The notes below the pieces were generated by a model, which saw nothing but the letters and a program-made list of their open reading frames with translations, was not told the DNA's origin and did not search any database. A stretch of 64,000 nt of DNA from Rhodanobacteraceae bacterium (GTDB lineage Bacteria > Pseudomonadota > Gammaproteobacteria > Xanthomonadales > SZUA-5), in assembly GCA_031409855.1 (NCBI GenBank), contig JANNYA010000066.1:595-64594 (forward strand), given 5' to 3'. Made by a program: the position numbers and the translations under genes. Positions 18,140-48,683 of this stretch are shown piece by piece (positions within the stretch are counted from its first letter, which is position 1; every line of letters begins with the position of its first letter).

Positions 18140-18947
18140 GTTCGCCCAAACCCTGTCTAAAATTCTGCTCGGCTTAATCGCCGCAACGGGATTGCTGAGC
18201 ACACAAGCCTTCGCATCTGCTGCGGCTTGTTTGCCTTTCGGCGAAGCGCAAACAAACCCGACGGATGTGCCAACGTTGCAACGTGGTGCGAAGCTGTATT
18301 TCAACTACTGCTCGTCGTGTCATTCACTTCAGTACATGCGCTACTCGCTGCTTGCGCAGGATTTGGATTTGACCGAAGCGCAAGTGATGAGCGACTTGGC
18401 CTACACTGAAGCGAAATTCGGCGATTACATCACCAACAATATGCCCAAGGGTGGTCGTGGTGCAGCGCCCGGCGGTACCGAATGGTTTGGTGCGGCGCCA
18501 CCGGATTTGTCGCTCACTGCCCGTGCGCGTGGTGTTGATTGGATTTATAACTATCTCAAGGGTTTTTATCCCGATCCAAGTCGGCCGGTAGGCTGGAACA
18601 ATCTGACCTTCCCAAATGCATCCATGCCAAATCCACTGTGGGAGCTGCAGGGCTTGCAAGAGCATGTGGTGCATGAAGCGAAAGCGCATGATGCAGCTGC
18701 TGGTGCAGGCGGACACGCCGCAGAAGCTGCGTGCAGCCCCGCGTCTTTGGCGTTAAAAACGCCAGGAACACGCAGCGCACTGCAATATGATGCGGATATT
18801 CAAGACCTGACCAGCTTCATCGAATACGTCGGCGAGCCAGCAATTATCCAGCGCGAAAGCATGGGTGTTTGGGTAATACTTTATTTGGCTGGGCTGACTT
18901 TTTTACTTTGGTTACTTAAAAATGAGTTCTGGAAAGACGTCCATTGA
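18132..18947 (+). CDS. petC: cytochrome c1
   Basis: It has a signal peptide, the heme motif CSSCHSL and a C-terminal TM anchor. It overlaps the petB end by 8 nt. Confidence 0.85.
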   Translation: MTKFAQTLSKILLGLIAATGLLSTQAFASAAACLPFGEAQTNPTDVPTLQRGAKLYFNYCSSCHSLQYMRYSLLAQDLDLTEAQVMSDLAYTEAKFGDYITNNMPKGGRGAAPGGTEWFGAAPPDLSLTARARGVDWIYNYLKGFYPDPSRPVGWNNLTFPNASMPNPLWELQGLQEHVVHEAKAHDAAAGAGGHAAEAACSPASLALKTPGTRSALQYDADIQDLTSFIEYVGEPAIIQRESMGVWVILYLAGLTFLLWLLKNEFWKDVH

Positions 18948-23876: not shown

Positions 23877-24033
23877 GCTGGATTGTTGCCGCAAAATGAA
23901 ACTGAATGACAGCAATGATTAAACGCCAAATTGCGCTGCCTTAACTGGAATTTACCACGGCAAACACTATCTTTGACCCAGTTGTTAAATTCGTTAAGTA
24001 TGTTAATTTCATTAAATCAAAAAGGAGCAACCC

Positions 24034-24723
24034 ATGTCTATGCGCGTCCTCGTCATTGAAGACAACCCTGATATCGCCGCCAATATTGGCGATTACTTAG
24101 AAGATCGTGGCCACGTAGTCGATTTCGCCCGTGACGGTGGCAGCGGCTATACGATGGCGGCGGAAAATGAGTTCGACGTGATCGTGCTGGATCTGATGTT
24201 GCCGGTAATGGACGGCCTTGATGTGTGCAAAAAGCTGCGTACCGAAGCGCGCAAGCCGACCCCGGTTTTGATGCTGACCGCGCGCGATTCATTGCAGCAA
24301 AAACTTGCAGGGTTTGCGACTGGCACCGACGACTACATGGTGAAACCCTTTGCGCTGCAAGAGCTGGAAGCGCGGCTTTTGGTGCTGGTGCGGCGCTCCA
24401 AACCACCGGTGGCCAGAATTTTGGACGTTTCCGAGCTGAGTTTTAATTTAGACACACTGGTGGTCACTCGCCAGGAGCAGCAAATTACGCTGAATCCAAT
24501 CGCGCTCAAATTACTGCAGTGTTTAATGGAAGCATCGCCCTCAGTGGTCACCCGTCAAGAGCTTGAACGCCGCGTTTGGGGTGAGGAATTGCCAGATAGC
24601 GACAGTTTGCGGGTTCATATTCACAGCTTGCGCGCGGCAATCGACAAGCCGTTTAATAGCCAATACTTACAAACCCGGCACGGCATTGGCTATCGACTCG
24701 TTGACCCCACAGCTTCCGCATAA
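24034..24723 (+). CDS. OmpR/PhoB-family response regulator
   Basis: The REC domain shows VLVIEDN, VIVLDLMLPVMDG and DDYMVKPF. The winged-helix domain shows LNPIALKLLQCL...RHGIGYRL. Confidence 0.9.
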   Translation: MSMRVLVIEDNPDIAANIGDYLEDRGHVVDFARDGGSGYTMAAENEFDVIVLDLMLPVMDGLDVCKKLRTEARKPTPVLMLTARDSLQQKLAGFATGTDDYMVKPFALQELEARLLVLVRRSKPPVARILDVSELSFNLDTLVVTRQEQQITLNPIALKLLQCLMEASPSVVTRQELERRVWGEELPDSDSLRVHIHSLRAAIDKPFNSQYLQTRHGIGYRLVDPTASA

Positions 24724-26017: not shown

Positions 26018-26156
26018 CCTAAAATCTAGCTGATTTAGTCGGTGCGCTAGCAGCGCCGACGCCCGCATTTTTCCTTAACTAATTCTTAATTTTTGACGAA
26101 TCGTGCACGTGCCGCTATCTTAGGCCTCGTTTTCGCGTCGCGCATGAGGTTTCTGC

Positions 26157-27683
26157 ATGATCTATCAACCTAGTTCAGAGCACCATTCCAGGCCGCATCG
26201 GCGCCAAGCCGTGCGCCGCGCACACACCGATTTCAACCAAGAACGCCACTGGCAGGAGCGCCCGACCCACGCGCCAGTGCTTAAGCGCTTGAGCCGAGCG
26301 ATCAGCCACGGTTTTGATCGCGCAGTTTCTGGTGCCCAGTCTTTTGCTAGACATATGGTGCTAATTCCGCGCTCACTGGTGCTGGGTAGCTTCGCCGTCG
26401 CTGCTGCCGCAGTCGTTTTGCCGCTCTCAGCGAGTATTTTAGTTAATCCAGAAGTTCGTACCGTTAAGCTCAGCTTGGCGTTACCACCCATTTCGGAAAC
26501 GTTGTCACGCGAAGCCGCCACTTCGGTGCCGAATTTAGCCTCAGATTTATATGTCGCTGGCGTCAATGACGATCAGTGGCGGGTGGAAACCGTGCGGCGC
26601 AATGAAACCGTTGGCGATATGTTTGGCCGCCTAAACCTTGGCCAAGGCGATGTGCACCGGATCGTTAATTTCAGCGAGCAAACACAGGAATTGGCACGTG
26701 TATTCCCGGGTGAGCAAATCGCGTTTCGTATGGGCGAGGGCATACTTACCGGCCTGCAATTTGATGGCGACGAGGCACATCGCGTGCTGTTGACGCTTGA
26801 CGGCGATAAAATCACGCAACGTTTGATTGAACGCCAAATGGAGCGCCGCGTGAGTTACGCCAGCGCCACCATCGAGCACTCGCTGTTTGGTTCGGCAATG
26901 AACGCGGATATGAGCGACGCTTTGATCGTGCGTCTGGCGGGTATTTTTAACTACGACATTGATTTCGCGCAAGATTTACAGCCCGGCGATAGCTTCGCGC
27001 TGGTCTATGAGCAAATTTACCGCGATGGTGAAAAACTACGTGACGGTGAAATTATCGCCGCAACTTTCACCAATCAGGGCAAGCGCTACGAGGTTTATCG
27101 CTTTGTCGACGACGCGGGCCGCCCGGATTATTTAAGTGCCGATGGCCGTAGCCGTAAAAAGGCATTTATTCGGACTCCGGTTGAGTTCACGCGCATTACC
27201 TCAAAATTTTCGCCGAATCGCAAACACCCGATTTTGGGACGCATGATGCGCCATATGGGTGTCGACTACGCCGCACCCACCGGCACGCCGATTATGGCGA
27301 CCGGCAATGCGGTAGTGAAATTCATCGGAGTGCAAAACGGTTACGGTAATGTCGTGATTTTGCAGCACAAAGGCGGCATCGAAACTTTGTATGGACACCA
27401 ATCCCGCTTCGCCAAAGGCTTAAGCCGTGGTGATCGCGTTACGCAAAACGAAGTGATTGGTTACGTCGGTATGACCGGCCTGGCCACTGGCCCACACTTG
27501 CACTACGAATTCCGCATCAGCGGCGCACACAAAGATCCGCTCAGTGTCGATTTACCGGTGTCCGACCCGCTTAGCGGCAGTGAAATGGCGCGCTTTAAGT
27601 CCAGCACCGCGCCGCTATTGGCGCAATTGAGTCAGTTGCAGCAAGCGCTGGCGCTGAATCGCGACGCGTCCGCTACACGCTAA
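26157..27683 (+). CDS. M23 family metallopeptidase (MepM/YebA-like murein endopeptidase)
   Basis: It has an N-terminal TM anchor and the M23 motifs HMGVDYAAPTGTPI and GMTGLATGPHLHYEF. Confidence 0.85.
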   Translation: MIYQPSSEHHSRPHRRQAVRRAHTDFNQERHWQERPTHAPVLKRLSRAISHGFDRAVSGAQSFARHMVLIPRSLVLGSFAVAAAAVVLPLSASILVNPEVRTVKLSLALPPISETLSREAATSVPNLASDLYVAGVNDDQWRVETVRRNETVGDMFGRLNLGQGDVHRIVNFSEQTQELARVFPGEQIAFRMGEGILTGLQFDGDEAHRVLLTLDGDKITQRLIERQMERRVSYASATIEHSLFGSAMNADMSDALIVRLAGIFNYDIDFAQDLQPGDSFALVYEQIYRDGEKLRDGEIIAATFTNQGKRYEVYRFVDDAGRPDYLSADGRSRKKAFIRTPVEFTRITSKFSPNRKHPILGRMMRHMGVDYAAPTGTPIMATGNAVVKFIGVQNGYGNVVILQHKGGIETLYGHQSRFAKGLSRGDRVTQNEVIGYVGMTGLATGPHLHYEFRISGAHKDPLSVDLPVSDPLSGSEMARFKSSTAPLLAQLSQLQQALALNRDASATR

Positions 27684-27693
27684 TTTGGGGCGA

Positions 27694-28779
27694 ATGAGTC
27701 AGATCCGAAAGTACTACCTCGGCCTGATTTCTGGCACCAGCTGCGACGGCATTGACGCCGCGTTGCTAAGTTTTGAGCCGCTGCAGGTGCATTTTGCAAA
27801 AACCTATGGCTTTCCCAGAGAATGGCGTGAATTGGCTTTAGCGCTCGGGCAGGGCCAGGAATTAGTCAACTTAGACGATCTGGGTCAGCTTGACGTTGCC
27901 CTCGGCAAGGCTTTTAGCGACGCCGCATTGCAGCTTTTAATTGAAGCGGGCATTTCCCCCAATCAAATTACCGCGATTGGCAGCCACGGACAAACCGTGC
28001 GGCACCGGCCGAATTTGGCGCACCCATTCACGTTGCAATTGGGGTGTCCACATGTGATCGCCGAACGCACCGGCATTAAAGTAGTTGCAGATTTTCGTCG
28101 GCGCGATGTCGCCGCTGGCGGCCAAGGCGCGCCGCTGGTGCCGGCGTTTCACGCAGCGGTGTTCCCGCCGGGCAGCGTCGTGTTAAATCTGGGCGGCATT
28201 GCCAACGTTACGATTCTGGGGCCCGCAGTGCTCGGCTTCGATACTGGCCCCGCAAACTGCCTACTGGATGCGCATGCGCTGGCCGAATTCGGTTTATCCC
28301 ATGATGCCGGTGGCGCAATTGCCGCACGCGGCAAGGTCAACACCGCGCTGCTATCACGCCTGGCAGCCGATCCGTATTTTGCGACCCCGGCACCAAAAAG
28401 TACCGGTCGTGAAACCTTTAATCTTGCCTGGGTGCGCGCACGCGCTGGTGCGACCGATCAAGATATCAGCGCAGAGGATTTGCAAGCGACCTTGTTAGAG
28501 CTAACCGCAATTACGATTCGCGATGCCTTAAAACCCTTTGCAGCGGGCGAAATTTTAGTGTGCGGTGGCGGCGTGCATTGCCCGCCGCTGCTAGCGCGTT
28601 TGGCCTATCACTGCGGCGTGCCAGTGCGCTCGACGACTGAGTTTGGTATCGATCCTGACTTCGTAGAAGCCGCCGCATTCGCTTGGCTAGCGCGCGAAAC
28701 GCTGGAAAATCGCCCTGGAAATCGCCCCGAAGTAACGGGTGCAAAGGGTTTGCGGGTGCTTGGCAGCGTTGTGGCTTAA
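27694..28779 (+). CDS. anmK: anhydro-N-acetylmuramic acid kinase
   Basis: YLGLISGTSCDGIDAAL is the AnmK N-terminal signature, and the length is about 360 aa. Confidence 0.9.
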   Translation: MSQIRKYYLGLISGTSCDGIDAALLSFEPLQVHFAKTYGFPREWRELALALGQGQELVNLDDLGQLDVALGKAFSDAALQLLIEAGISPNQITAIGSHGQTVRHRPNLAHPFTLQLGCPHVIAERTGIKVVADFRRRDVAAGGQGAPLVPAFHAAVFPPGSVVLNLGGIANVTILGPAVLGFDTGPANCLLDAHALAEFGLSHDAGGAIAARGKVNTALLSRLAADPYFATPAPKSTGRETFNLAWVRARAGATDQDISAEDLQATLLELTAITIRDALKPFAAGEILVCGGGVHCPPLLARLAYHCGVPVRSTTEFGIDPDFVEAAAFAWLARETLENRPGNRPEVTGAKGLRVLGSVVA

Positions 28780-29180
28780 GCCAAATCAGGCAAGGTGTAG
28801 TCAAACTTGTAGCTGTGTTTGCCCTCGGCAATAATGATTTCCATGCTGCCGACTAGGCCTTCGAGTGCGTCAGTGCCCGAGTCCGGCACCACAGTTAAGC
28901 TCAAACTCGCCGCGCCACGATTCATTGTGCCGCTGTGCTGCAACACAAAACTCCCCGCACGCCCAGAAAGAGTGCCCTGCACCAGCTCCATCGCAACATA
29001 GCCCGCCGAGCCCGCAATTTTACTGCGCATCGCCAGCATTTGGCCGACGCTGGTGGCGTCCAGCTCGCCGTGAAAACGCTTATCCAATAGCATGCGCCCG
29101 ATCACTTCCCCAGCCGCCGCTGTTTCAGCCGCTTGCGGGATGATTTTGACGTCGAATGCGCCTTCAATGGATGTGGACAT
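28776..29180 (-). CDS. DUF3224 domain protein
   Basis: FDVKIIPQ...LLDKRFHGELDATSVGQMLA...GSAGYVAMELVQGTLSGRAGSFVLQHSGTM...LTVVPDSGTDAL matches the family pattern as I remember it. Confidence 0.7.
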   Translation of the reverse strand: MSTSIEGAFDVKIIPQAAETAAAGEVIGRMLLDKRFHGELDATSVGQMLAMRSKIAGSAGYVAMELVQGTLSGRAGSFVLQHSGTMNRGAASLSLTVVPDSGTDALEGLVGSMEIIIAEGKHSYKFDYTLPDLA

Positions 29181-29305
29181 GCGTGTTTCCGAAGCGTGGA
29201 GTGCCGCGCATGATAGCCCAGTCCTACGTGGCGCAACTCAATTTAACAGTGGCCTAGGGCATCAATTTAGCCTGGCACCCAGCGATTTCACCCAAATATC
29301 ACTTT

Positions 29306-29340
29306 GGCACTTTAATTTCGATTTAACCCTCTGTTAACCT
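29306..29340 (+). promoter_or_regulatory. conserved upstream element GGCACT-N11-TTAACCCTCTGTTAACCT (copy 1)
   Basis: It shares sequence and geometry with 37158-37192. In both copies TTAAC is repeated with an 11-bp period, 93 nt separate the motif from the receptor ATG, and GGAGA lies 9 nt before the ATG. Confidence 0.45.
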
Positions 29341-29433
29341 CCGCCGGTTCGCTTTTCGCGTGACAACTCAACCCAGGTTGGCAGTGCTTGCTTGGAAACT
29401 GACTCTCTCTTAAGTTTTCGGAGAATTATTAAT

Positions 29434-32313
29434 ATGATGAATCAAACTCAATTAGTGCGTTCCGTTCGCACCGCTCTACTCGCAGGATTGGCCGTTTCCT
29501 TCACCGCACCTGTTTTTGCCGCCGAAGGCGACGAGCAGACGATGAAAGAAGTGGAAGTGCTCGGCTCGCGCATTAAGCGCGCTGATACTGAAACCGCTAG
29601 CCCAGTATTAATGATTGATGCCGCCGCCATTGAACGCGCGGGTGTTGCGACGCTCGGCGACATTATTCAAGAACTTCCAGCCATTGCCGGTGCGGCGACG
29701 AATCCATCGGTTAATAATGGTGGCGGTGACGGCGCTGCTAAAATCTCGCTGCGTGGCTTGGGTGACGAACGAACGTTGTTGTTAGTGAATGGCCGTCGCT
29801 TGAACTACAACGACGTCAACTCAATTCCAGCGAGTTTGGTTGCGTCTATTGAAATCCTTAAAGATGGCGCTTCGGCAATTTACGGCACCGACGCAATCGG
29901 TGGCGTGGTCAACTTCATTCTGAAGAATGACTACGAGGGCGCTCAAGTAAATCTAGACTACGGTGTATCCGCCGAAGATGACGGCGAACGCATGGGCGGT
30001 TCAGCTGCGTTCGGCGTCGCTGGCGAACGTGGTAATTTCATGGTCAATTTGAATTACAGCGACCAAGAAGAAGTTTCTGCCGCTGATCGTGATTATTCGC
30101 GTAATGCGTTATCACTGTATAGCGGTACCGTTACTGTCGGTGGCTCAAGCCGCACTACGACAGGGCGTTACACAGTGCCGCGTTCCGTGGCTCCAGCTGC
30201 CTGCCCAGGCACCAGTGCGAATATCGCCCTGACACGTATAGATGGGCGCCCTGGAACTGCGATTTCGGATTTCCGATGCTTCGCTGCGCCTGGTGATTTA
30301 TTCAATTACCAAGCCGTCGGAAACCTGCAGTTGACTCCACAGGAACGTGCAGGACTATTCTTTGCTGGTAATTTTAACTTCACTGATACCGTTACTGGCT
30401 ACATGGAAGCTTGGACACAAAGCACAAGTTCAGCACAACAAATCGCGCCGTTGCCATTCGATGGCCGTCTGGGCCAAGATGACATCGTGCTACCCGCTAA
30501 CAGTGCTTTCAACCCGTTTGGCGTTGATATTAGGGACAGCCGTTTGCGCTTAAGCCGCATTGGTAATCGCCGTTCCGAGTTTGATACAGATTCCAAACAA
30601 ATTAACGTCGGTGTTAAGGGTGCATTTGGCGATACCTCCTGGGATTGGGATGTCGGCGGCACCTATGGCAAATTGACGCAAGATTTGACCCAGACGGGCT
30701 ATCTATTAACTTCCGCCCTGGGTGCAGCTCTTGGACCCTCGTTCTTCGCAGGCCCGAATCGTACTTTGCCGACTTGCGGTACCCGTGCGGCACCGATCGC
30801 CGGTTGTATTCCCGTCGATTTTTTTGGCGCACCACCTGACGCAACGACCGCTGCCGGTCAAGCGCAGTTAGCGGCGTTAGGATCCATTGCTACGAATACG
30901 GTCAATTCCACAGTTCAAACGTTGAAAACTCTTAACGGGCTGGTTCGGGGCGACGTTTTCGAAACCTCAGCGGGCACCGCCGGTGTTGCTATCGGCGTCG
31001 AGTGGCGTAAAGATTATTACAATTTCGAGCCTGACTTTTTAGCGCGCTTGAACCCTAGCTTTACCTGCTTAATTTCTTCTGAAGCATGCACCACACCTAC
31101 CGTTGGTGAGACTTCCGTGAAGGAAGTCTACGCTGAAATATACGTGCCGCTCTTGGCTGATGCGCCGTTCGCACAAAAACTAAACCTCACGGGTGGCGTT
31201 CGCTTCTCCGACTATGACACTTTCGGCAACACAACCAATGGCAAAATTGGTGTGGAATGGAAACCGTTTGAAGATTTATTAGTGCGAGCAACGTACGCAC
31301 AAGTGTTTCGGGCGCCGACCATCACCGATTTGTTTGGTGGGCAAACTGCAGCTTCGGACAGTTTCACCGACCCGTGCAATCGTTACGGCAGCGCATCAAA
31401 TCCACGTTCTGCTCTGAAAGATGTCGCATGCCGAAACGTCCCAACAAACGGCTCGTTTAATCAAACCGATACCCAGTTGTCGGCCATTGCTAGTGGCAAT
31501 CCAAATGTACAGCCAGAAGATGGCACCACGCTCACCTATGGTTTCGTTTACAGCCCAACTTACTTGGACGGCGCGTCGGCCACCTTAGATTTTTGGCGTT
31601 ATTCGTTGGAAAAAACCATTGGCGCCTTTGGAACTCAGCCCATTCTTAATGGTTGCTTCACATCCGGTGTGTTTTGTGATCGCTATTCACGCGGTACCGA
31701 TGGCGAAATTTTGCGCTTGTTCAACATCGCCGACAACGTTGGCACCACGGATACCAACGGCGTCGATATTGGCTTGCGCTATAACTTTGATACGGAATCT
31801 GCCGGAGCCTTTCGCTTCAACTTAGACTCCACCTATGTCGATAAATATGACACTGGTATCATTTTAGCGGGTTCGTCCACGCCGATTTTTGTGCGTCAAA
31901 ATGCCGGTACGTTCTTGAGCCCAGCACAAGGTGGCGATGGTAACTATAGCCGTTGGCGCGGTTTGGGCAATGCGGTTTGGACGCTGGGTGACTTAGATGT
32001 TTCCTGGACTTCACGCTACATCCACCGTTTCGTCGTCGGCAGCAATAATCCAAACGTCAACTCAACCTGTGCCGATGCCGGTGGCCGCGCCTTTCAATGC
32101 CGTATCGAGCGGGGTGCCCAGACCTATCACAATCTGTCGGTGGGTTACAAAGTGGAACCTATCAATACCAAGTTCCGTTTCGGTGTCGACAACGCGTTCG
32201 ACAAACAACCGCCTATCGTGTTCCAAAACAACTCACTCAACGGCAACACCGATGAGCGCACGTTTGACACGGTCGGCCGTTACTTCTGGATCACTTCAAG
32301 CACAACGTTCTAA
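29434..32313 (+). CDS. TonB-dependent receptor, paralog 1
   Basis: The signal peptide is LVRSVRTALLAGLAVSFTAPVFA. The plug shows ASPVLMID, SLRGLG, LLLVNGRR and IEILKDGASAIYG. It has a ~900-aa barrel ending in F. The start is at MMNQ, because the TTG at 29392 lacks an RBS. Confidence 0.9.
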   Translation: MMNQTQLVRSVRTALLAGLAVSFTAPVFAAEGDEQTMKEVEVLGSRIKRADTETASPVLMIDAAAIERAGVATLGDIIQELPAIAGAATNPSVNNGGGDGAAKISLRGLGDERTLLLVNGRRLNYNDVNSIPASLVASIEILKDGASAIYGTDAIGGVVNFILKNDYEGAQVNLDYGVSAEDDGERMGGSAAFGVAGERGNFMVNLNYSDQEEVSAADRDYSRNALSLYSGTVTVGGSSRTTTGRYTVPRSVAPAACPGTSANIALTRIDGRPGTAISDFRCFAAPGDLFNYQAVGNLQLTPQERAGLFFAGNFNFTDTVTGYMEAWTQSTSSAQQIAPLPFDGRLGQDDIVLPANSAFNPFGVDIRDSRLRLSRIGNRRSEFDTDSKQINVGVKGAFGDTSWDWDVGGTYGKLTQDLTQTGYLLTSALGAALGPSFFAGPNRTLPTCGTRAAPIAGCIPVDFFGAPPDATTAAGQAQLAALGSIATNTVNSTVQTLKTLNGLVRGDVFETSAGTAGVAIGVEWRKDYYNFEPDFLARLNPSFTCLISSEACTTPTVGETSVKEVYAEIYVPLLADAPFAQKLNLTGGVRFSDYDTFGNTTNGKIGVEWKPFEDLLVRATYAQVFRAPTITDLFGGQTAASDSFTDPCNRYGSASNPRSALKDVACRNVPTNGSFNQTDTQLSAIASGNPNVQPEDGTTLTYGFVYSPTYLDGASATLDFWRYSLEKTIGAFGTQPILNGCFTSGVFCDRYSRGTDGEILRLFNIADNVGTTDTNGVDIGLRYNFDTESAGAFRFNLDSTYVDKYDTGIILAGSSTPIFVRQNAGTFLSPAQGGDGNYSRWRGLGNAVWTLGDLDVSWTSRYIHRFVVGSNNPNVNSTCADAGGRAFQCRIERGAQTYHNLSVGYKVEPINTKFRFGVDNAFDKQPPIVFQNNSLNGNTDERTFDTVGRYFWITSSTTF

Positions 32314-32335
32314 ACACTGGATGTTTGTTTGAATA

Positions 32336-32370
32336 TCGAAAACCGTGCGATGCAAGTCGCACGGTTTTTT
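32336..32370. terminator. bidirectional rho-independent terminator between convergent genes
   Basis: A perfect 10-bp stem AACCGTGCGA/TCGCACGGTT with a 6-nt loop is flanked by an A-run upstream and TTTTTT downstream. Confidence 0.7.
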
Positions 32371-34237
32371 AATTCCTGTATGAAAAATACGCCATCCAAG
32401 GATCTAATAACTTGTTCGCTCCGCTTGCTTCAAACTCCGGCAAATACCGCTGAAAGCGATTTAGGGCGCGGGTATTGACCGCTTCGGTCACGGCGGCATA
32501 GCTGGGTGTTGAGATCGCGCGCGTTTTTGCCCTTTCGGTAAAATTAAGCAGCTCTGGCAGCCAAGGCAAGCCTAGAAATTCAACCAGTGCAGCTGCGGTT
32601 TCAGCGGTATTTTCGACAAATGACTCGTATTTAAGCTCGAAAATAGCCAGCGTTAATTTCTGGCGAGCATCGGCGTAAAAACTAAACACCCGGTCGTACA
32701 TGCTTGAAGTTGCTGCCAGGGTGCGCATCGTTACTGCAAACGCGGGCGCGCGAAAATGTTGCATATAGCAACTCAGCACACAATCGGCAGGTTGGCGAAT
32801 CACAACAATCACTTTTGCGCGCGGGAACAAGGCTTGAATCAGCGGTAGCCGGGCCAAATTCAGCGGGTTTTTGTCGACGTAGCGCGCGCCTGAGCTTAAG
32901 TTTGGGCTGACCTTGTTGCACAAGGAAAAATAATGTGCACGCAAATCACCAAGCTGCTCAACACTTAGCCGGTCAAGTTCAGCCGGGTAGCGCAAACCCA
33001 TATCTTGCATGCGCAGAATGCATTTTTGCAAAAATGCTTGCTCATCAAAGGACTGTAGTGCCGGGTGCGCGTCCAGTAATTGCTCCAGCAGCGTCGTGCC
33101 CGAGCGTGGAAAGCCGACCACGAATACCGGATCGGGCCGATCATCCATTGCGGGCTGCACGGCGAACTTAGGAAATCCTTGATTTAACAGCACCAATGGA
33201 TCTTCCTCAAACGCCATTTTTGGGTGCGCAGCTGCTACCTGCGCAAAACGCGCTTCATGCGCTTCGTTCAGCAATGCGAACACAGCCTGCGGCTTGTTCA
33301 GAGCATCCAGCGCTTTCGCCAATTCAAACTGCAGTGCAATGCGTAAATTCGGCTCCAACTTAGTGCCCAGCAAGGGCTCAAGCATGGCTGCTACCTGATC
33401 GAAGCGTTTTTCCCGCGCTGCCAAGCGGGCGTCAAACTGCATCAGTGTTTGCCCGGCTTTGCTTTTCATACGGGTTGCGATGGCTGCATCCGGCGCAAAT
33501 TCCGCGCCCAAGGCAGTCAGCTTGGCACGCGTATCACGCATCTTCACCAGTTGGTTCGAGCGCTCGTAACTCAGTCCTAAGCTAATTAGGGCAAAGGGAT
33601 ATTCAGCTGCCTTTGGCGAAACCTTAAGCGATGCCGCTTCTGCCCCGGCATAGTCGCTCAGTTGCAAAACTAAAAAGGCGTATTCGACCGCTAAATCGGC
33701 CGGCATCGGTGCCGCTTGCAATCGCTGTGCGTTGTCTTTGGCCAAGTCAATTTCATCGAGGGCAATTAGGCATTTCAAATAAAACAGTGCGACTTCCAAG
33801 TCCTGATCGAGCCCGTTTTTAAGCGCCTGCACCACTTCAGCTTTCGCAAGCAGCACTTCCCCTAACTCAAACGCCGCGCGCGCAAGGCCAAAATGCACGC
33901 TGCCGTCCGAAAAGCCAAGCTGTTGCGCCCTTCGTAAGGCCGCGAATGCGGCTTGTGGGTTTGCCAATTCCAATAGTGCGTTGCCCAAATTCGCATGGTG
34001 TTCGGGCACCTGGGATTCGAGCAAAATTAGCGCGCGGTACACTTGTGCCGCCGCTTCTGCCTCGCGCAGCGCCGAGTGCGCTAAGCCTTTCGCGGTTAGC
34101 CACGCGCTGTCGCCTGGCGTTGATGCTAAAGCGCGATCAGCCCAGGCCAAAGTCTGCTGCGGTTTGCCGTTTGCCAGCGCATCAAATGCGCTCTGCAGTG
34201 ACGGGTTTGGCGGTGGCACAGCATTCGGGATAGTCAT
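32369..34237 (-). CDS. TPR-repeat protein with C-terminal PAPS-dependent sulfotransferase domain (copy 1)
   Basis: About 350 aa of TPR-like helical repeats are followed by the 5'-PSB motif VGFPRSGTTLLEQLL and the 3'-PB-like IRQPADCVLS. There is no signal peptide. Confidence 0.85.
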   Translation of the reverse strand: MTIPNAVPPPNPSLQSAFDALANGKPQQTLAWADRALASTPGDSAWLTAKGLAHSALREAEAAAQVYRALILLESQVPEHHANLGNALLELANPQAAFAALRRAQQLGFSDGSVHFGLARAAFELGEVLLAKAEVVQALKNGLDQDLEVALFYLKCLIALDEIDLAKDNAQRLQAAPMPADLAVEYAFLVLQLSDYAGAEAASLKVSPKAAEYPFALISLGLSYERSNQLVKMRDTRAKLTALGAEFAPDAAIATRMKSKAGQTLMQFDARLAAREKRFDQVAAMLEPLLGTKLEPNLRIALQFELAKALDALNKPQAVFALLNEAHEARFAQVAAAHPKMAFEEDPLVLLNQGFPKFAVQPAMDDRPDPVFVVGFPRSGTTLLEQLLDAHPALQSFDEQAFLQKCILRMQDMGLRYPAELDRLSVEQLGDLRAHYFSLCNKVSPNLSSGARYVDKNPLNLARLPLIQALFPRAKVIVVIRQPADCVLSCYMQHFRAPAFAVTMRTLAATSSMYDRVFSFYADARQKLTLAIFELKYESFVENTAETAAALVEFLGLPWLPELLNFTERAKTRAISTPSYAAVTEAVNTRALNRFQRYLPEFEASGANKLLDPWMAYFSYRN

Positions 34238-34289
34238 TTCAGATCAACTCAGGCAATGTTGCACGATTAAACCACCGATCTGTCGAAAT

Positions 34290-34919
34290 ATGCCCGCCCC
34301 GATTAGTCAACCACCCAATGAGCCTGCTGCCATTGTGACCGCAGCGCTGTCGCTTAGCAGCTACGTACAGGTATTTGACAACGCTTTGCCCGCAACCTTT
34401 TGCCAGCAAATGCTGCAGTCTTTTAATTCGCTCGCGCGCTTTCATAAGCCAAACGGCCGTGGTGTGCGCGCCGGGCACGACGCTAGCGCATGGACTGAAC
34501 TTGATATCTCGCCGCTGACTGATGTGAGTTTTCGGCAAATTGTACTTGCCAATATGCACAAGCACTTAGCGCTCTATAACGCCGCCATTGCACAATCCGC
34601 GCCGGTGCCAACGCTGCCCATTCCGGGTACCGACAAAATCAGTGAACTGATTGTCAAACGCTATCGCCCCGATGCCGATGAAGCGTTTCAGCTGCATTTT
34701 GACGCGCTTGGCCCAGTGGCAAACCGCTACATGGTGTTTCTTTGGTATCTAAATGATGTGGCGGAGGGAGGCGAAACTGAGTTTCCAGCGCTTAATGTTT
34801 CCGTCGAACCCAAGGCCGGCCGCCTGGTGATGTTTCCGCCGTATTGGATGTATCAGCATCAGGGGAAAGCGCCACGCAGCGGTGACAAATACATTTTTTC
34901 CAGTTATTTTTTGTTTTGA
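34290..34919 (+). CDS. small 2OG-Fe(II) oxygenase (P4H-like fold, copy 1)
   Basis: The facial-triad context is QLHFDA (HxD) ... YQHQG (distal His), plus WYLNDVAEGGETEFP. It is about 70% identical by eye over the core to the 40286-40846 protein. The ORF-track start at 33981 is rejected. Confidence 0.8.
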   Translation: MPAPISQPPNEPAAIVTAALSLSSYVQVFDNALPATFCQQMLQSFNSLARFHKPNGRGVRAGHDASAWTELDISPLTDVSFRQIVLANMHKHLALYNAAIAQSAPVPTLPIPGTDKISELIVKRYRPDADEAFQLHFDALGPVANRYMVFLWYLNDVAEGGETEFPALNVSVEPKAGRLVMFPPYWMYQHQGKAPRSGDKYIFSSYFLF

Positions 34920-36034
34920 CCATGTTGATTTTCGCCAGCGATACCGTGATTCGGGCCCAAAGCGGTCAGATGTTGATTCACACTACGACAGGCACCTGGC
35001 CGCCATTTGTCGCGCAATCGCCGCAGTTAATAGGCTGGCTGGCGCAATTTATGCGCGCCACCGACGCGACGGCGGCTCTGGGCGCGCTCGATTTTGTCAA
35101 TGCGCAGCAGGCCAAGGGTGTAATTGAGCATTTGCAAAAAAATGGCGCATTAGTTGACGCGCAGTCGACAGCAGCCCAGCTGCCGGAGCCTAGCGCCGCC
35201 CACGCACAAAGCGGCAAACATTTGAATGGTCTGGCACGGCAAATTTATGATCTGAGCGCGGACGTGCAGGGCTTGGGCGAATTTGCGGAACGCCAATTAC
35301 GTCAAAATGGTGGCGCTGGTTTGGAACGGCGATTGCTTAGCCTAGGCGCAAGCATTGACGGTTTACGGCGGGAATTAAGTGCGCTGCGCGAGCCGCATTT
35401 GGCCGCCCAATTCGATGCGCTAAAGCTTAAGCCGGACGCGAACAACCTGAAATTGCACCTAGGCTGCGGCCCCGTGCACTTGGGGGGTTTCATCAATATC
35501 GACATTGCACCTGCGCCCTTGGCGATGAATGTGCTCTGGGGTTTGCCATTTGACGATGGCACCGTTCAAATCGTGTATCTGTCGCATTTATTGGAACATC
35601 TCTTTTATCCCACCGACGTCATGGCCCTGTTTGGCGAAATTTACCGGGTGTTGGCACCCGGCGGCGTTGTACGCGTCGTCGTACCCGATATCGCCAAGTG
35701 CTTAGCCGCGTATGCGCGTGGGGATCAAGCATTTTTTGCGGCGCGGCGTGAAAACTTCAGTTGGTGGCCATCTGATGCCAGTCTGCTAGAAAACTTTCTG
35801 ACTTATGCCGGTGTCGGCCCAGAACCTAGGTATTTATTTGAGTCGCATAAATACGGCTATGATTTTGAAACTTTGGCTAAAGCGCTGGCTAAAGCGGACT
35901 TCGCCGAAATCACCCACTCTGAGTTTCAGAGTAGCCGCGAGCCAGCACTGCGTATAGAACATTTGAGCGCAGCCGCGCGTTGGCGCGCAGGGGACGAGTA
36001 TTTATCCCTATTTGTGGAAGCAATTCGGCCATGA
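34916..36034 (+). CDS. two-domain protein: unknown N-terminal domain (~170 aa) + class I SAM-dependent methyltransferase
   Basis: The SAM-binding motif is LKLHLGCGPVHLGGFINIDI and the post-II region is VLAPGGVVRVVVPD. Its start overlaps the oxygenase stop. Confidence 0.75.
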   Translation: MTMLIFASDTVIRAQSGQMLIHTTTGTWPPFVAQSPQLIGWLAQFMRATDATAALGALDFVNAQQAKGVIEHLQKNGALVDAQSTAAQLPEPSAAHAQSGKHLNGLARQIYDLSADVQGLGEFAERQLRQNGGAGLERRLLSLGASIDGLRRELSALREPHLAAQFDALKLKPDANNLKLHLGCGPVHLGGFINIDIAPAPLAMNVLWGLPFDDGTVQIVYLSHLLEHLFYPTDVMALFGEIYRVLAPGGVVRVVVPDIAKCLAAYARGDQAFFAARRENFSWWPSDASLLENFLTYAGVGPEPRYLFESHKYGYDFETLAKALAKADFAEITHSEFQSSREPALRIEHLSAAARWRAGDEYLSLFVEAIRP

Positions 36035-37107
36035 CGCAAGCCGCTGCACAAGTTTTGCGCCAGTTAGCCAAACAGCTCATGCAGGCGGGTGATTTTAGCA
36101 ACGCCGAGGCTCAAATTCGTGCCGCAATCGCGCTCGCGCCGGGTGCTCCGATCCTACATTTAGAGCACGGGCAGATTTTCGAGCAGCAAAACAATATCAA
36201 TGCTGCCACCCGTGCCTACTACCGCGCCGTGATGAAGGCGCGCGCAAAAGGGCTGTGGTTAGACGATGCAACCGTGCCAGCGCAAGTTTTGCCGCAGGTG
36301 CTGCATGCGATGCAATTCGTAGAAACGCATCGTGATGGTGTGCTGCACGCATTGCTTGAGCCACTCTACGCCCAATTTGGCAAAACTGAACTTGAACGCG
36401 TCACTGGGGCACTCAATATCTATCTGGGTTCCGATCTTACTAAACCAGCAAGTCCGCATCAGCGCCCACACTTTTTATATGTGCCAGGCCTAACTGAAAC
36501 GCCGTTTGTCGACGCCAAGCGATTCAGTTGGATAGACGCAGCACTCGATGCGCGCGCAGCAATCGCGGCTGAGGCGCATGCGGTGTTTGCGAATCAGCGG
36601 GGTGTCGAGCCTTTTCTTCAAGCCGCGCCTGGTAACGATCTGACCGTTTACATAGCAGGCGATCAAGCCAAGTGGGAAGCGCATTTTTTCTATCGGCATG
36701 GCTTAGCAAACCCGGAAAACTTAGCCGCTAGTCCTGCAACTGCGAACTTGCTGGCAAAAGCGCCACTAGTGCGCATCGCCGAACATGCGCCGGAAATATG
36801 CTTTTCCGCACTGACGCCTGGTAGCCATATCTTGGCGCACACCGGCGTCACCAATCTGCGTTTGGTGGCGCATTTGCCGTTGATTTTGCCTGACCGCTGC
36901 GCGCTAAAAGTGGCTGGCATCGAACGTGCCTGGAAACTGGATGAGGTTTTAATATTTGATGACACTTTTGAGCACGAAGCCTGGAATCGCAGCGATCAGA
37001 CCCGGGTCATTTTGCTGATGGATGCTTGGCATCCGGATTTGACGCAGGCCGAGCAGATTGCCTTTGCCGAACTTATTGAAGGCATTGGCTGCTTCAACCG
37101 TGGCTGA
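36031..37107 (+). CDS. TPR + aspartyl/asparaginyl beta-hydroxylase-family (Asp_Arg_Hydrox) 2OG oxygenase
   Basis: SHILAHTGVTNLRLVAHLPLILP...FDDTFEHEAWNRSDQTRVILLMDAWHP is the family signature. The ATG at 36031 overlaps the upstream stop (ATGA). Confidence 0.85.
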   Translation: MTQAAAQVLRQLAKQLMQAGDFSNAEAQIRAAIALAPGAPILHLEHGQIFEQQNNINAATRAYYRAVMKARAKGLWLDDATVPAQVLPQVLHAMQFVETHRDGVLHALLEPLYAQFGKTELERVTGALNIYLGSDLTKPASPHQRPHFLYVPGLTETPFVDAKRFSWIDAALDARAAIAAEAHAVFANQRGVEPFLQAAPGNDLTVYIAGDQAKWEAHFFYRHGLANPENLAASPATANLLAKAPLVRIAEHAPEICFSALTPGSHILAHTGVTNLRLVAHLPLILPDRCALKVAGIERAWKLDEVLIFDDTFEHEAWNRSDQTRVILLMDAWHPDLTQAEQIAFAELIEGIGCFNRG

Positions 37108-37157
37108 ATTAATTGCCGCCCACATTCGCTGACTGTAACGCCTGTGTAACTTGACAG

Positions 37158-37192
37158 GGCACTAGCCGTGTGACTTAACTCTCTGTTAACCT
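37158..37192 (+). promoter_or_regulatory. conserved upstream element GGCACT-N11-TTAACTCTCTGTTAACCT (copy 2)
   Basis: See 29306-29340. The spacing to the SD and ATG of receptor paralog 2 is identical. Confidence 0.45.
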
Positions 37193-37285
37193 GCCAGCTT
37201 GTGCTCGATGTCGAGCTCAAATTCAATGGCCTTGCCTTGCGGGGCTGGTTTTCTAACGGCTCTGCTGTACTGGAGAAAGAAACAA

Positions 37286-40147
37286 ATGATTAGTCAAAAT
37301 GAACTTACGCGTTCAATTCGATTTGCCCTTTTAGCTGGCATCTCGGCCCTTGCAGCTCCTGCATTTGCGCAGGATAGCGCGGCAGAAAAAGCCGAGGCCG
37401 AAGATCTTGATGCGGTCGTAGTCACGGGTACCCGGCTTCGTCGCGTTGATGCGGAAACTGCAAGTCCAGTTTTCGTTATTGATCGCGCCGCTATTGAAAC
37501 GACCGGCGCATCGACGATCGGCGAATTTATTCAAGAAACGCCCGCAATCTCAGGGGCAGCAACGAATCCACAAGTCAATAACGGTGGTGGTACTGGTGCC
37601 GCAACTGTTTCATTGCGCGGGCTCGGTTCTGCACGAACCTTGTTGCTCGTAAACGGTCGCCGCTTTAATGCGGGTGACGTTAACGCTATTCCCATCAATG
37701 CCGTTGAGCGCGTTGAAGTGCTGAAAGATGGCGCATCGGCAATTTACGGCTCCGATGCAATCGGCGGCGTGGTCAACTTTATTCTGCGCGAAGATTTTGA
37801 CGGCCTAGAGTTTTCGGCTCAATACGGCATTAGTTCTGAAGATGACGGCGAACAAACTAGCTACAGCATGATCAACGGTTCGTCCGGCGAAAACAACAAT
37901 GTTGTTTTTGGCTTCAATTACAACCAAACCGAAAAAATTCTGGCACGTGACCGCGAGTTCTCTAGCGCCCCGTTTGCACTATCTAGCGGCGAAGAAATTA
38001 TTCTTGGTTCGTCGCGTACACCTACAGGTCGTTACGTGGTTCCGCGTGCCGTTGCAGCAGCAGGTGGTGCAAACCTCGCCGCGTGTCAGGGCACAACGAC
38101 AAACGTAACGTTAACGCGTACCGCTGGAACCTCCGGCACCTCGATCAATAACTTCCGTTGCTTTATCGGCTCTGGCCCGAACAATGATACTTATAACTTC
38201 CAGGCGGACGGCAACTTAGTTGTAACGCCGCAGGAGCGCTATAATATTTTTGCTTTAGGCAAATCAACGATCAATGATAACGTCGATTATTATTATGAGT
38301 TGATGTACAACAATACCCGCGCATCATTCGAAATCGCGCCTGAGCCATTTGATGGTCGCCCTGCTGTTGCAAACGTGCCTTTGTCCGGCCAAAGCGTCTT
38401 CAATCCGTTCCGTGTAGACATTACCGATGGCCGTTTGCGCCTATCGGATGCCGGCCCACGTAAAGCAGAGACAGAAACTAGCAATATCCAGCTCAACACC
38501 GGCTTCCGTGGTGGTTTTGATATTGGTGACAGAAATTGGACTTATGATGCTGGCGTTGTGTACGGCCGTTCACTTGCAACCAGCGAACGTCGTGGCGAAG
38601 TTTTCTCCGCAGCACTTCGCAGTGCTTTGGGCCCGTCCTTCCGTGGTGCCAATGGTGTAGCTGTTTGTGGTACACCGACCGCACCAATTGCTGGCTGCTT
38701 GCCAGTAAATTTCTTCGGCCCATTGACCACAGATGCAGAACGTGCGGCACTTACCGCACTTATTCCTACCGTCAAGCAACGCACTTTGGGCTTGTTGAAA
38801 ATGGTAACGGCGAACGTGGGTACCAACTCGCTATTCACATTGCCGGCTGGCGACGTGGGCTTCGCACTGGGCACCGAATTTCGCAAGGAAACACTTGATT
38901 TCGTGCCAGATTTCTTGCAAGTGCTGAATGCTGACGGCAATTGCCAAGTGACAGCTGGCTGTACATCGCCAGTTGCTGGTGAGTTTTCAGTCCGCGAAAT
39001 TTATTCCGAAGCGTTCGTGCCTATTATCAGCGACATGCAATTCGTGAAAAGCCTCAACATGACGATCGGCGCACGCTACTCGGATTATTTTGATTCCTTC
39101 GGCAGCACCGACAATTACAAATTGGGCCTCGAATACCGCCCGGTTGATGATGTGTTGTTACGTGGTACCTACGCGAAAGTGTTTCGTGCGCCAACGATTA
39201 ATGATTTGTTCTCTGGTCAAGGCGAAAACGCTGAGCAATATGACGACCCTTGCAACGGTTACGGAAGTGCGGCAAATCCACGCTCGCCAACGCGCGATAT
39301 TGCTTGCCGAAATGTGCCAACAAATGGTCGTTTCGCTCAATCGGATACTCAAGCAAATACCCTTACCGGCGGTAACCGCGGTTTAGTACCAGAAGATGGT
39401 TCGGTCACAACCTGGGGTATCGTTTATTCACCTTCGTGGTTGACTGGTTTTTCCGCAGTCATGGATTTCTGGCGTGTTGATCTCGAAAACGGTATTGGCT
39501 CAAGTAACACCAGCGATATTTTGCTCAGTTGCTTTCAAACAGGTAATCCAGCGTTGTGTGGGCTCTATACTCGCGATACAACTGGCGAAGTCATCACTGT
39601 TGATACGCGAACTGTCAATTTAGACCGCCTTGAGACGAATGGTTTGGATTTCGGTATGAAGTACGCGTTGCCAGAAACAGACTACGGCACGTTCCGCGTT
39701 AGCCTTGATTCAACCTACATAGCGGACTACAAAACGACCGGTGCGGTCGGCAACAGCTATGCTGGCGACTTCCGTGATTCATCGACAGGCGGTAACGGGC
39801 ATTTTGCGCGTTGGCGTGGTCTGGGTTCAGTGGGTTGGTCGATGGGGCCGTGGGCAGCGTCTTGGAAACAGCGCTATATTCACCACATCACAGAAACCCT
39901 TGCTGACGGAAGCGTCGATAATGGCGACGGATTTGCTGACCGTCGCACGATTGGTGCATACACCTATCACGACATCCAAGGTTCGTTCAATTTGGAAGAC
40001 TTTAATACCCGTTTCTCGTTGGGTGTTGATAACGTAAACGATAAGCAAGCACCACGTATCTACTCAGGCTTTAATGCAACGACCGACGTGCGTACCTACG
40101 ACACCGTTGGCCGCTTCTATTACTTCCGTGCGGACATCAAGTTCTAG
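37286..40147 (+). CDS. TonB-dependent receptor, paralog 2
   Basis: The signal peptide is LTRSIRFALLAGISALAAPAFA. The plug and barrel are collinear with paralog 1 (ASPVFVID, SLRGLG, LLLVNGRR, VEVLKDGASAIYG) and the protein ends in F. Confidence 0.9.
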   Translation: MISQNELTRSIRFALLAGISALAAPAFAQDSAAEKAEAEDLDAVVVTGTRLRRVDAETASPVFVIDRAAIETTGASTIGEFIQETPAISGAATNPQVNNGGGTGAATVSLRGLGSARTLLLVNGRRFNAGDVNAIPINAVERVEVLKDGASAIYGSDAIGGVVNFILREDFDGLEFSAQYGISSEDDGEQTSYSMINGSSGENNNVVFGFNYNQTEKILARDREFSSAPFALSSGEEIILGSSRTPTGRYVVPRAVAAAGGANLAACQGTTTNVTLTRTAGTSGTSINNFRCFIGSGPNNDTYNFQADGNLVVTPQERYNIFALGKSTINDNVDYYYELMYNNTRASFEIAPEPFDGRPAVANVPLSGQSVFNPFRVDITDGRLRLSDAGPRKAETETSNIQLNTGFRGGFDIGDRNWTYDAGVVYGRSLATSERRGEVFSAALRSALGPSFRGANGVAVCGTPTAPIAGCLPVNFFGPLTTDAERAALTALIPTVKQRTLGLLKMVTANVGTNSLFTLPAGDVGFALGTEFRKETLDFVPDFLQVLNADGNCQVTAGCTSPVAGEFSVREIYSEAFVPIISDMQFVKSLNMTIGARYSDYFDSFGSTDNYKLGLEYRPVDDVLLRGTYAKVFRAPTINDLFSGQGENAEQYDDPCNGYGSAANPRSPTRDIACRNVPTNGRFAQSDTQANTLTGGNRGLVPEDGSVTTWGIVYSPSWLTGFSAVMDFWRVDLENGIGSSNTSDILLSCFQTGNPALCGLYTRDTTGEVITVDTRTVNLDRLETNGLDFGMKYALPETDYGTFRVSLDSTYIADYKTTGAVGNSYAGDFRDSSTGGNGHFARWRGLGSVGWSMGPWAASWKQRYIHHITETLADGSVDNGDGFADRRTIGAYTYHDIQGSFNLEDFNTRFSLGVDNVNDKQAPRIYSGFNATTDVRTYDTVGRFYYFRADIKF

Positions 40148-40182
40148 ATCCAGCGTTGTATTGAGGTTTTAATTAGCATTGA

Positions 40183-40210
40183 GGGGCTGGCCGATAGGCT
40201 GGCCCCTTTT
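40183..40210 (+). terminator. rho-independent terminator after receptor paralog 2
   Basis: A 10-bp stem GGGGCTGGCC/GGCTGGCCCC (two G-U pairs) with a GATA loop is followed by TTTT. Confidence 0.75.
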
Positions 40211-40217
40211 GCGTTTT

Positions 40218-40229
40218 GTGTGTACACAC
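40218..40229. promoter_or_regulatory. perfect 12-bp palindrome GTGTGTACACAC, candidate operator
   Basis: It lies 56 nt upstream of the 40286 ATG, between a terminator and the next operon. Confidence 0.3.
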
Positions 40230-40285
40230 GGTGTAAAAGCGTGCCGTATGCCAAGCAAAAAAATATTTAAGTAGTTGAGGTTGTT

Positions 40286-40846
40286 ATGCTTTCTTTAGAT
40301 CATTTTGTTCGCACCTATGATCAGCCTGGCCCGCCGACTTGGTGTGCTGAGTTAATCGAACGCTTTGAGCAATTGCAGCGATTTCAACAAGCTAACGGCG
40401 CAGGTATTCGGCCCGGCTTAGAGCAAAGCGCGTGGACTGAGTTGGATATTGGCCGCATTGCCGATGCCGATTTTCGAGCTAAGATCAATCAGTTTATCGT
40501 CGAGAGTTTTATTCAATACAATAAAGATCTGGGATTGTCGATGCCGATTAGTCCACCTCGGCAACACGCGGAACTGATCGTAAAACGCTATCGGGCAGGC
40601 ACTGACGAATCCTTTCAATTGCATTTTGACGCTTTAGGTGAAGTGTCCAATCGCTATCTTGTATTTCTTTGGTATCTAAATGATGTGGATGAGGGCGGGG
40701 CTACGGAGTTCCCGGACCTAAGGCTAGCCATTGCACCTAAAGCCGGGCGATTGCTGGTATTCCCGCCCTATTGGATGTTTCAGCATCGCGGTACACCCCC
40801 GATCAGCGGCGACAAATACATACTTTCAACTTATTTAGTTTACTAA
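40286..40846 (+). CDS. small 2OG-Fe(II) oxygenase (copy 2)
   Basis: QLHFDA...WYLNDVDEGGATEFP...FQHRG is present. It is a paralog of the 34290-34919 protein. Confidence 0.8.
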   Translation: MLSLDHFVRTYDQPGPPTWCAELIERFEQLQRFQQANGAGIRPGLEQSAWTELDIGRIADADFRAKINQFIVESFIQYNKDLGLSMPISPPRQHAELIVKRYRAGTDESFQLHFDALGEVSNRYLVFLWYLNDVDEGGATEFPDLRLAIAPKAGRLLVFPPYWMFQHRGTPPISGDKYILSTYLVY

Positions 40847-40862
40847 CCAGGCCAGATATTGC

Positions 40863-42641: not shown

Positions 42642-42814
42642 TTGGCAGCGCGCGCAGCAGGTCACGTTCGCGCATATTCGAGCTATTTAGTATTACAGAA
42701 ACGCCAGTTGGATAAAAATAACAGATGAAATTCTCCTTACGATTGCGTTAAACTTTCGCTAAGTCGCGGTTACATCCACGCGCTGTCCCCACACAAAGCA
42801 TAAGGATTCAAAAA

Positions 42815-48525: not shown

Positions 48526-48683
48526 CACCCGTGCAACTGCAAGATTAGACGCGGGGCATTAATAATGAACACAACAAGACAAACAACTACATTTGACGGA
48601 CGCTTTCGCTGAGGCGAAAGTGTTAAAGTTCACCCCGCTTTTCAAGGCAGCACCCGCTGCTACAACACAATTGGAGAATCCAA

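Follow-up and report, generated by a model that had tools for sequence, protein, structure and literature searches.

A conserved promoter-like block upstream of TonB-dependent receptor genes in a Rhodanobacteraceae genome

Two receptor genes and the block they share

The window, the 64,000-nucleotide stretch of Rhodanobacteraceae DNA that was analyzed, contains a cluster of genes encoding TonB-dependent receptors. Receptor 1 (29434–32313) and receptor 2 (37286–40147) both lie on the plus strand, and their products, which are 46% identical, each consist of a Plug domain and a barrel without a signalling domain. Receptor 1 is followed by a terminator-like, bidirectional hairpin, AAAACCGTGCGATGCAAGTCGCACGGTTTT (32339–32368), and receptor 2 by a terminator-like hairpin of 12 pairs with a T-run (40181–40208, plus strand). 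A beta-hydroxylase, a PhyH-like oxygenase/methyltransferase, a sulfotransferase and a TonB-type receptor form a conserved gene neighbourhood (Iyer et al. 2010, PMC2938197), described in a study that covers the enzymes and not the promoters, and the same gene set surrounds the receptors here. In the related locus L090, an inserted IS605 OrfB/TnpB-type gene (7517–8722) separates the cluster’s sulfotransferase gene from its 2OG-oxygenase gene. Elsewhere in the window, an IS66-family transposase gene (2080–2970, minus strand) adjoins a Shedu SduA-like anti-phage defence gene (3978–4820, minus strand).

The regions upstream of receptors 1 and 2 share a block of 35 bases. The receptor 1 block (29306–29340, plus strand) consists of GGCACT (29306–29311), 11 further nucleotides and TTAACCCTCTGTTAACCT (29323–29340), and ends 93 nt before the ATG at 29434. 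That of receptor 2 (37158–37192, plus strand) has GGCACT (37158–37163), the same 11-nt gap and TTAACTCTCTGTTAACCT (37175–37192), again 93 nt before the ATG (37286). Each 18-mer can be divided into a first TTAAC (29323–29327 and 37175–37179, respectively) and the nonamer TGTTAACCT (29332–29340 and 37184–37192), both on the plus strand, and GGAGA lies 9 nt 5′ of both start codons (29420–29424 and 37272–37276). The two blocks, their 93-nt spacing and the GGAGA-N9-ATG arrangement are all where an earlier reading of the sequence, referred to below as the original prediction, had placed them. A search for the 18-mer that tolerated up to three mismatches matched the window only at the two receptor blocks, against 0.01 occurrences expected, and none of 100 shuffles reached two. 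The exact nonamer TGTTAACCT also occurs within the receptor 3 coding sequence (43591–43599), probably by chance.

Because the two receptors share only 46% of their residues and their leaders are about 27% identical, which is the random level, the block is not a neutral residue of duplication but is held by selection. The spacing of exactly 93 nt, to which the original prediction had given weight, is true of receptors 1 and 2 but is a coincidence within a constrained range, since the distance from the end of the block to the ATG is 86 to 100 nt in orthologs and 120 nt in one of them. This longest leader, that of L086, contains a tandem duplication of about 27 nt of the ribosome-binding-site region (…TAGAGAAAGAACAAAT / …TGGAGAAAGAAACAAATG).

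Conservation of the block and its putative −10 hexamer

Upstream regions of receptor 1 homologs were gathered by protein similarity alone. To these we added the matches of one metagenome scan for the composite motif GGCACT-N11-TTAAC-N3-CTGTTAAC and the second receptor on one of those contigs. The scan gave four matches, three of them upstream of receptors and one (L087) antisense within a coding region. The nearest genome match was a Rhodanobacteraceae metagenome-assembled genome at 67% identity. Of the 15 independent lineages sampled, 13 have the block in front of their orthologous receptor, and two orthologs (61% and 66% identity) lack it. The selection on a protein-binding site or promoter for which the original prediction had argued, and which it had made depend on the motif’s presence at such receptors in relatives, is thus supported. 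The upstream regions of 76 more distant, high-GC receptor homologs contained no TTAAC-N5-GTTAA, and GGCAC stood at the right distance in 5 of these 76, a frequency of about chance. The other intergenic regions of the receptor cluster contained no copy of the receptor-specific elements; a loose motif match at window position 46924 fell inside an RnfH gene and was set aside. The 35-base block is a real, conserved and fairly ordinary regulatory element.

We aligned the lineage sequences on CTGTTA (−16 to −11), numbering from a putative start site about 7 nt after the hexamer. Seven kinds of hexamer were represented among the 13 block-bearing lineages: TAACCT, TAACAT, TAAGTT, TAAATT, TAAGCT, TACGTT and TATGTT. 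T-12, A-11 and T-7 were constant in all 13, the middle positions of the hexamer (3 to 5) varied, and a TG lay one base 5′ of the hexamer in every lineage; because CTGTTA was the alignment anchor, however, the invariance of −16 to −11 (the TG, T-12 and A-11 included) follows by construction, and the independent observations of invariance outside the anchor are T-7, T-24, A-22 and A-21 only. The first TTAAC was kept in 9 of the 13 lineages. It was lost in L001, L096, L090 and L088, where TAAAT (twice), TAAAA or TAAAG took its place, and in L001 and L096 neither half-site reads TTAAC, yet the TG-n-TA…T box, the T.AA and GGCACT are all kept. GGCACT itself was exact in eight lineages, and near-matches occurred in four more (GACACT or GTAACT in two, GTCACT shifted by one base in two); only L082a lacked the element.

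Since T-12, A-11 and T-7 are fixed, the middle three bases vary and a TG precedes the hexamer by one base, this part of the block has the signature of an extended −10 element. In receptor 1 the TG lies at 29332–29333 (−15/−14) and the hexamer, TAACCT, at 29335–29340. A scan with consensus promoters detected no canonical −35/−10 pair on the plus strand upstream of either receptor. The 30 nt that follow the block contain no TA dinucleotide, and hence no TAnnnT, in either receptor region, which leaves no alternative −10 box there. The 5 to 7 nucleotides after the hexamer are variable and mostly G+C-rich, and conservation resumes within each ortholog group at a hairpin about 7 nt on. Among these bases (29341–29346, 37193–37198 and the orthologs) are CCGCCGG, CGCGCGG, TCGTCCG and CCGCCCT. 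In E. coli, discriminators rich in G+C are a feature linked to stringent (ppGpp/DksA) control.

The same type of box precedes unrelated genes. Within the window, TG.TAA..T was 5.5 times as dense in non-coding as in coding sequence, and eight copies lay on the sense strand of upstream regions, against 1.15 expected; none of 500 dinucleotide shuffles reached eight. All eight of these non-coding copies aim at a start codon 24 to 93 nt away. In addition to the two receptors, the genes behind them are gyrA (TGTTAAACT, 51224–51232, plus strand, 83 nt upstream), an ompA-like gene (TGTTAAAGT, 48621–48629, plus strand, 54 nt upstream), a GNAT gene, the response-regulator operon, which has two copies (TGTTAAATT and TGTTAATTT, 23983–24009, plus strand, 42 and 24 nt upstream of the response-regulator gene), and a divergent DUF3224 gene (TGTTAAATT, 29240–29248, minus strand, 59 nt upstream). 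The excess was replicated in related loci (12 copies against 1.86 expected), although most matches in the more distant relatives are receptor promoters, so that the box can be called generic with confidence only in the window and in L093, a close relative. Given that the same TGTTAAnnT box precedes unrelated genes, the second “TTAAC half-site” of the block is this organism’s generic −10 box. The pattern provides a usable promoter model (TGTTAAnnT with no −35) for an uncultured Lysobacterales-like lineage.

We consider it fairly probable that each receptor gene is a transcription unit of its own with the block as its core promoter, built on an extended −10 and carrying GGCACT and T.AA as receptor-specific signals. 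Housekeeping sigma-70 polymerase would read TGTTAACCT as its −10 element without a usable −35 box and begin transcribing about 7 nt beyond the hexamer, near 29347 (29346–29348) in receptor 1 and near 37199 in receptor 2. The resulting leader of about 90 nt would carry a hairpin at its 5′ end and, at its 3′ end, a ribosome-binding site paired to an upstream CUCU, and each transcription unit would close with a terminator-like hairpin of its own 3′ of the receptor gene. The closest known class is that of the extended −10 (TGn) sigma-70 promoters typified by galP1 of E. coli, in which a TG likewise lies one base upstream of TAnnnT and no −35 is recognizable. Such promoters are often activator-dependent. 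Here the hexamer is TAAC(C/A)T-like, whereas the organism seems to prefer TGTTAAnnT, and two further conserved elements, GGCACT and T.AA, set these putative promoters, with their predicted start sites, apart from the generic class.

An alternative is that the block is itself transcribed, as the conserved beginning of a duplicated 5′ UTR or an RNA element whose true promoter lies further upstream. The leaders downstream are indeed clearly conserved and probably structured, and UUAAC and GUUAA could pair with one another. The similarity between receptor 1-type and receptor 2-type regions, like that between receptor 2 and L086 or L089, begins exactly at GGCACT, however, so that no conserved promoter exists further upstream. 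Four lineages cannot form the UUAAC/GUUAA pairing of such an RNA hairpin, the leaders contain no complement to GGCACT, and no Rfam family matched at an E value of ≤1. We regard a transcribed block as extremely improbable.

The original prediction had seen in the block two direct TTAAC repeats bound by an OmpR/PhoB-type winged-helix regulator encoded in the window, which would activate both receptors. Parts of this picture are accurate. TTAAC-N6-TTAAC, with its 11-bp period, is present in 9 of 13 lineages, and T, A and A recur at −24/−22/−21 and −13/−11/−10. Pho and OmpR boxes also consist of two similar units of 5 to 7 bp with an 11-bp period, and two OmpR-family response regulators are encoded in the window (24034–24723 and 12756–13481, both on the plus strand). 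The first of these, which is followed by a kinase ORF ending at 26017, has several GTTAA units in its own promoter and is 99% identical in L093, where the receptor blocks are identical to those of the window. The second, which the original prediction had described as lacking an adjacent kinase, in fact has a hybrid histidine kinase (9433–11997, minus strand) about 750 bp away.

Nevertheless, the direct-repeat architecture does not hold. The second repeat coincides with the generic −10 box, while the first, as described above, is dispensable in four lineages and neither unit reads TTAAC in L001 and L096. Activators of the OmpR/PhoB family bind no further downstream than −35; their boxes replace or precede the −35, and a separate −10 follows some 10 bp on. 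The repeats here, at −24 and −13, would cover the spacer and the −10, the proximal unit being the −10 itself. With no TAnnnT in the next 30 nt, there is no usable −10 downstream, and a Pho-box-like activator layout does not fit. Among the loci examined, an OmpR-family gene occurs near the receptors only in the window and L093, and there is none near those of L082, L084, L088, L090 to L092 or L095 to L097. The GTTAA units at the regulator’s own promoter have a period of 9 bp rather than 11 bp. Neither regulator reaches any NCBIfam equivalog cutoff, so that no characterized ortholog group can be assigned, and we found no support for either as the receptors’ activator. We therefore consider control by such a regulator very improbable. 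A direct repeat spaced by a helical turn resembled a response-regulator site, a tempting over-reading that is corrected once half of the repeat is seen to be the organism’s −10 box.

The repeats at the regulator gene vary in number. Directly upstream of it, 23984–24015 contains four GTTAA/ATTAA units with a 9-bp period, and the same place in L093 (approximately 960–1000) has three perfect tandem copies of TGTTAATTT. Copy number thus differs between the window and L093 even though the regulator protein is 99% identical.

The receptor-specific elements T.AA and GGCACT

The other TGTTAAnnT promoters in the window have neither T.AA at −24 nor GGCACT at −41, which makes these two elements specific to the receptors. 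In receptor 1, the invariant T.AA (29323, 29325 and 29326) falls within the first TTAAC, at about −24 to −20, and GGCACT, at about −41 to −36, forms the 5′ edge of all similarity between the two receptor regions. Polymerase is not expected to read the bases of a promoter spacer. A plain promoter accounts neither for an invariant T.AA within the spacer nor for GGCACT 23 bp from the hexamer. GGCACT (−41 to −36) and T.AA (−24 to −21, usually as TTAAC) are most likely the contact points of a regulator on a weak, −35-less promoter, and the two elements mark the co-regulation of several TonB-dependent receptors.

The first TTAAC can also be read as half of a dyad. Because GTTAAC is palindromic, the direct repeat TTAAC-N6-TTAAC can equally be written as an inverted repeat, TTAAC-N5-GTTAA, which could serve as a palindromic operator at which a dimeric repressor covers the −10; the promoter assignment would still hold, with the first TTAAC completing the dyad. 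Operators that overlap the −10 are the usual way in which receptor genes of the TonB-dependent kind are repressed. The dyad is a perfect 5+5 in 9 of 13 lineages, and an operator would explain why T.AA is conserved in the promoter spacer. Conservation is asymmetric, however, as the CTG at −16 to −14 has no mirror image after the first TTAAC, and four lineages break the dyad while keeping T.AA, GGCACT and the −10. The half-sites are separated by an odd number of base pairs (5), the loci have no linked repressor gene, and an operator would leave GGCACT unexplained. We think a repressor operator of this kind unlikely.

A reading that does give GGCACT a role is that of an ECF (RpoE/AlgU-like) promoter with GGCACT as its −35 and TCTGT as its −10, 17 to 18 nt apart, through which the receptors would answer an envelope or nutrient signal. 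The AlgU/RpoE consensus is GAACTT-N16-17-TCTGA. GCACTn-N17-TCTGT resembles it, and the block is similar to promoters of this class (GGAACTT-N16-TCTGA) in its G-rich ..ACT about 17 to 18 bp upstream of TCTG. Across the lineages TCTGT (also CCTGT or GCTGT) stands 17 to 18 nt after G.CACT, where a TCTGA-like −10 would be expected 16 to 17 nt after the −35. The 1-bp shift of G.CACT in L088 and L090 is what a −35 element would show, and the GTAACT of L092 has the usual AAC core. That core appears only in L092, however; most lineages have CAC in its place, and L082a has no element at all. Conservation moreover runs on beyond TCTG into the TA…T, and an ECF promoter leaves the invariant T-12, A-11 and T-7 unexplained. 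The receptors lack an N-terminal signalling domain, and no sigma or anti-sigma gene was found in the window or next to any locus examined. A further point against it is that the window has a canonical GGAAC-N17-TCAAA (16195 to 16169, minus strand) elsewhere, 37 nt upstream of a gene for an HtrA/DegS-like protease (15011–16132); this is weak evidence in which only the position is suggestive, because the pattern is expected about four times by chance in the window. On balance, an ECF promoter appears distinctly unlikely.

Several other known site types were compared with the block and rejected. A sigma-54 promoter (GG-N10-GC; TGGCAC-N5-TTGC) would use the GGCAC, but the −12 reads TC, GT, AT, GC or AG across lineages. 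A class II site of the CRP/FNR/Clp type would need a distal TGTGA-like half-site, and none was found at −51 to −47 in any lineage. The PrfA-like box TTAACA-N2-TGTTAA is one base shorter in its spacing, and placing it at −41.5 leaves no −10. For a MarA/SoxS marbox there is a GCAC but no conserved second recognition element, and the spacing differs by 6 bp. There is no −35 at 19 to 20 bp for a MerR-type spacer operator, no inverted partner at 14 to 16 bp for the BirA half-site TGTTAACC and no second copy 21 bp away for an LytTR repeat (ACAGTTAAG-like). Finally, a minus-strand promoter (TTAACA-N17-TAAAGT, 29337 to 29309) fits only receptor 1, which has a divergent upstream gene, and not receptor 2, L082 or L084; that divergent DUF3224 gene already has its own TGTTAAATT box.

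Receptor 3 has an upstream element of its own. The original prediction had taken it for a degenerate version of the shared block, but the 21-mer TTGCGTTAAACTTTCGCTAAG (42743–42763, plus strand) is a separate element, with neither GGCACT nor TG, that lies 60 nt from the ATG and is conserved in the L082 ortholog (approximately 18385–18405). The form common to the two is TTGCGTTAAACTTT(C/T)GCTAAG. Within the 21-mer, CGTTAAACT resembles a −10 box but lacks the TG.

The 5′ leaders and the receptor slot

The leaders that would follow these promoters run from 29347 to 29433 for receptor 1 and from 37199 to 37285 for receptor 2 (both plus strand). The divergence that the original prediction had remarked on is confined to the comparison of the two types, which are about as similar as random sequence; each type is well conserved among its own orthologs. 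Relative to L093, the receptor 1 leader is 89% identical and the receptor 2 leader 86%, compared with 54% for the far part of the receptor 1 intergenic region. The leader of L092 is intermediate and links the two types.

The predicted folds share a 5′-terminal hairpin, a central G+C-rich hairpin and a pairing of CUCU(C) with GGAG(A) at the ribosome-binding site. In receptor 1, the predicted hairpins lie at 29347–29364 and 29373–29395, and CUCUC (29406–29410) pairs with the Shine-Dalgarno sequence GGAGA at 29420–29424. In receptor 2 they lie at 37199–37220 and 37228–37246, the second being followed by GUUUUCU, and CUCU (37260–37263) pairs with the Shine-Dalgarno sequence at 37272–37276. The central hairpin of the receptor 2 type has invariant arms, a variable loop and three G·U pairs that are workable only on the sense RNA. 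Covariation in the leaders was modest. The receptor 2 leader was more stable than its shuffles (z = −2.65), while the receptor 1 leader was no more stable than its own (z = −0.26), and for that reason the common three-hairpin layout is suggestive but unproven. The folding predictions are consistent with the idea that both leader types may fold alike, and a conserved layout would account for their roughly constant length. The Rfam search, which covered 28700–43000, returned no matches at the threshold given above, and 1.28 Mb of related loci, searched with a covariance model of the receptor 2-type leader, gave no other convincing match.

The arrangement resembles that of ompA-type 5′ UTRs and other leaders that sequester the ribosome-binding site, in which a long leader likewise opens with a hairpin and a run of pyrimidines pairs with the Shine-Dalgarno sequence downstream of it. 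It differs in that the structures here are predictions and the receptor 1 leader is not thermodynamically unusual. Between 37227 and 37263, the receptor 2 leader and those of L089, L086, L093 and L092 contain three similar segments, GGCCUUGC / GCGGGGCU / GGCUCUGC. The middle segment can pair with either neighbour, and the third holds the CUCU that pairs with the ribosome-binding site. A U-run follows the first hairpin of this region in receptor 2, L089 and L086, in a terminator-like manner, but not in L093 or L092. The three segments could form a switch, acting on translation or by attenuation, in which the ribosome-binding site is either exposed or masked.

The comparison with relatives also extends past the leader into the coding sequence. 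The window and L093 are colinear over 11.4 kb (26039–37339) at 75% identity, and the flanking proteins are 80 to 99% identical. Colinearity ends at 37339, 54 nt into receptor 2, and the gene downstream differs. The L093 receptor at this position is only 33% identical, yet its block is 100% and its leader 86% identical (L093 15755–15935). L088 and L089 have the same cluster layout with flanking proteins only 55 to 59% identical, and the receptor they have at the receptor 2 position resembles receptor 3 more than receptor 2, with which it shares 37% identity; 37174–37374, which runs from within the block through the leader to 88 nt of coding sequence, nevertheless shows 83% identity across 203 nt. 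L082 has a receptor 3-type gene with a receptor 3-type upstream region in this slot. The slot after the Asp/Asn-hydroxylase gene is occupied by a different receptor in each of four relatives; in three of them the block and leader are shared, although the receptors that follow are only 33 to 37% identical to one another. Across these comparisons (37158–37339 against L093, L089 and L086), the block, the leader and the first 54 to 88 or so nucleotides of coding sequence are 83 to 100% identical before the receptors fall to 33 to 37%.

The promoter, leader and signal-peptide codons therefore make up a module that is retained while the receptor body following it changes. We tentatively suggest, as a possibility short of the probable, that a portable 5′ module of some 200 nt, made up of the promoter, a structured leader and signal-peptide codons, begins with the block and stays almost the same as receptor bodies are exchanged. 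It would provide both a common regulatory input and a homology arm for receptor swapping, and its receptor 2-type leader would act as a switch that exposes or masks the ribosome-binding site. The retention of the module in front of swapped receptor bodies offers a modest, testable lead on how receptor repertoires diversify. Receptor 1 shows a pattern of its own: it is 68 to 69% identical to its counterparts both in the close relative L093, whose flanking proteins are 80 to 99% identical, and in the distant L088, where they are 55 to 59% identical. Its divergence does not track that of its neighbours.
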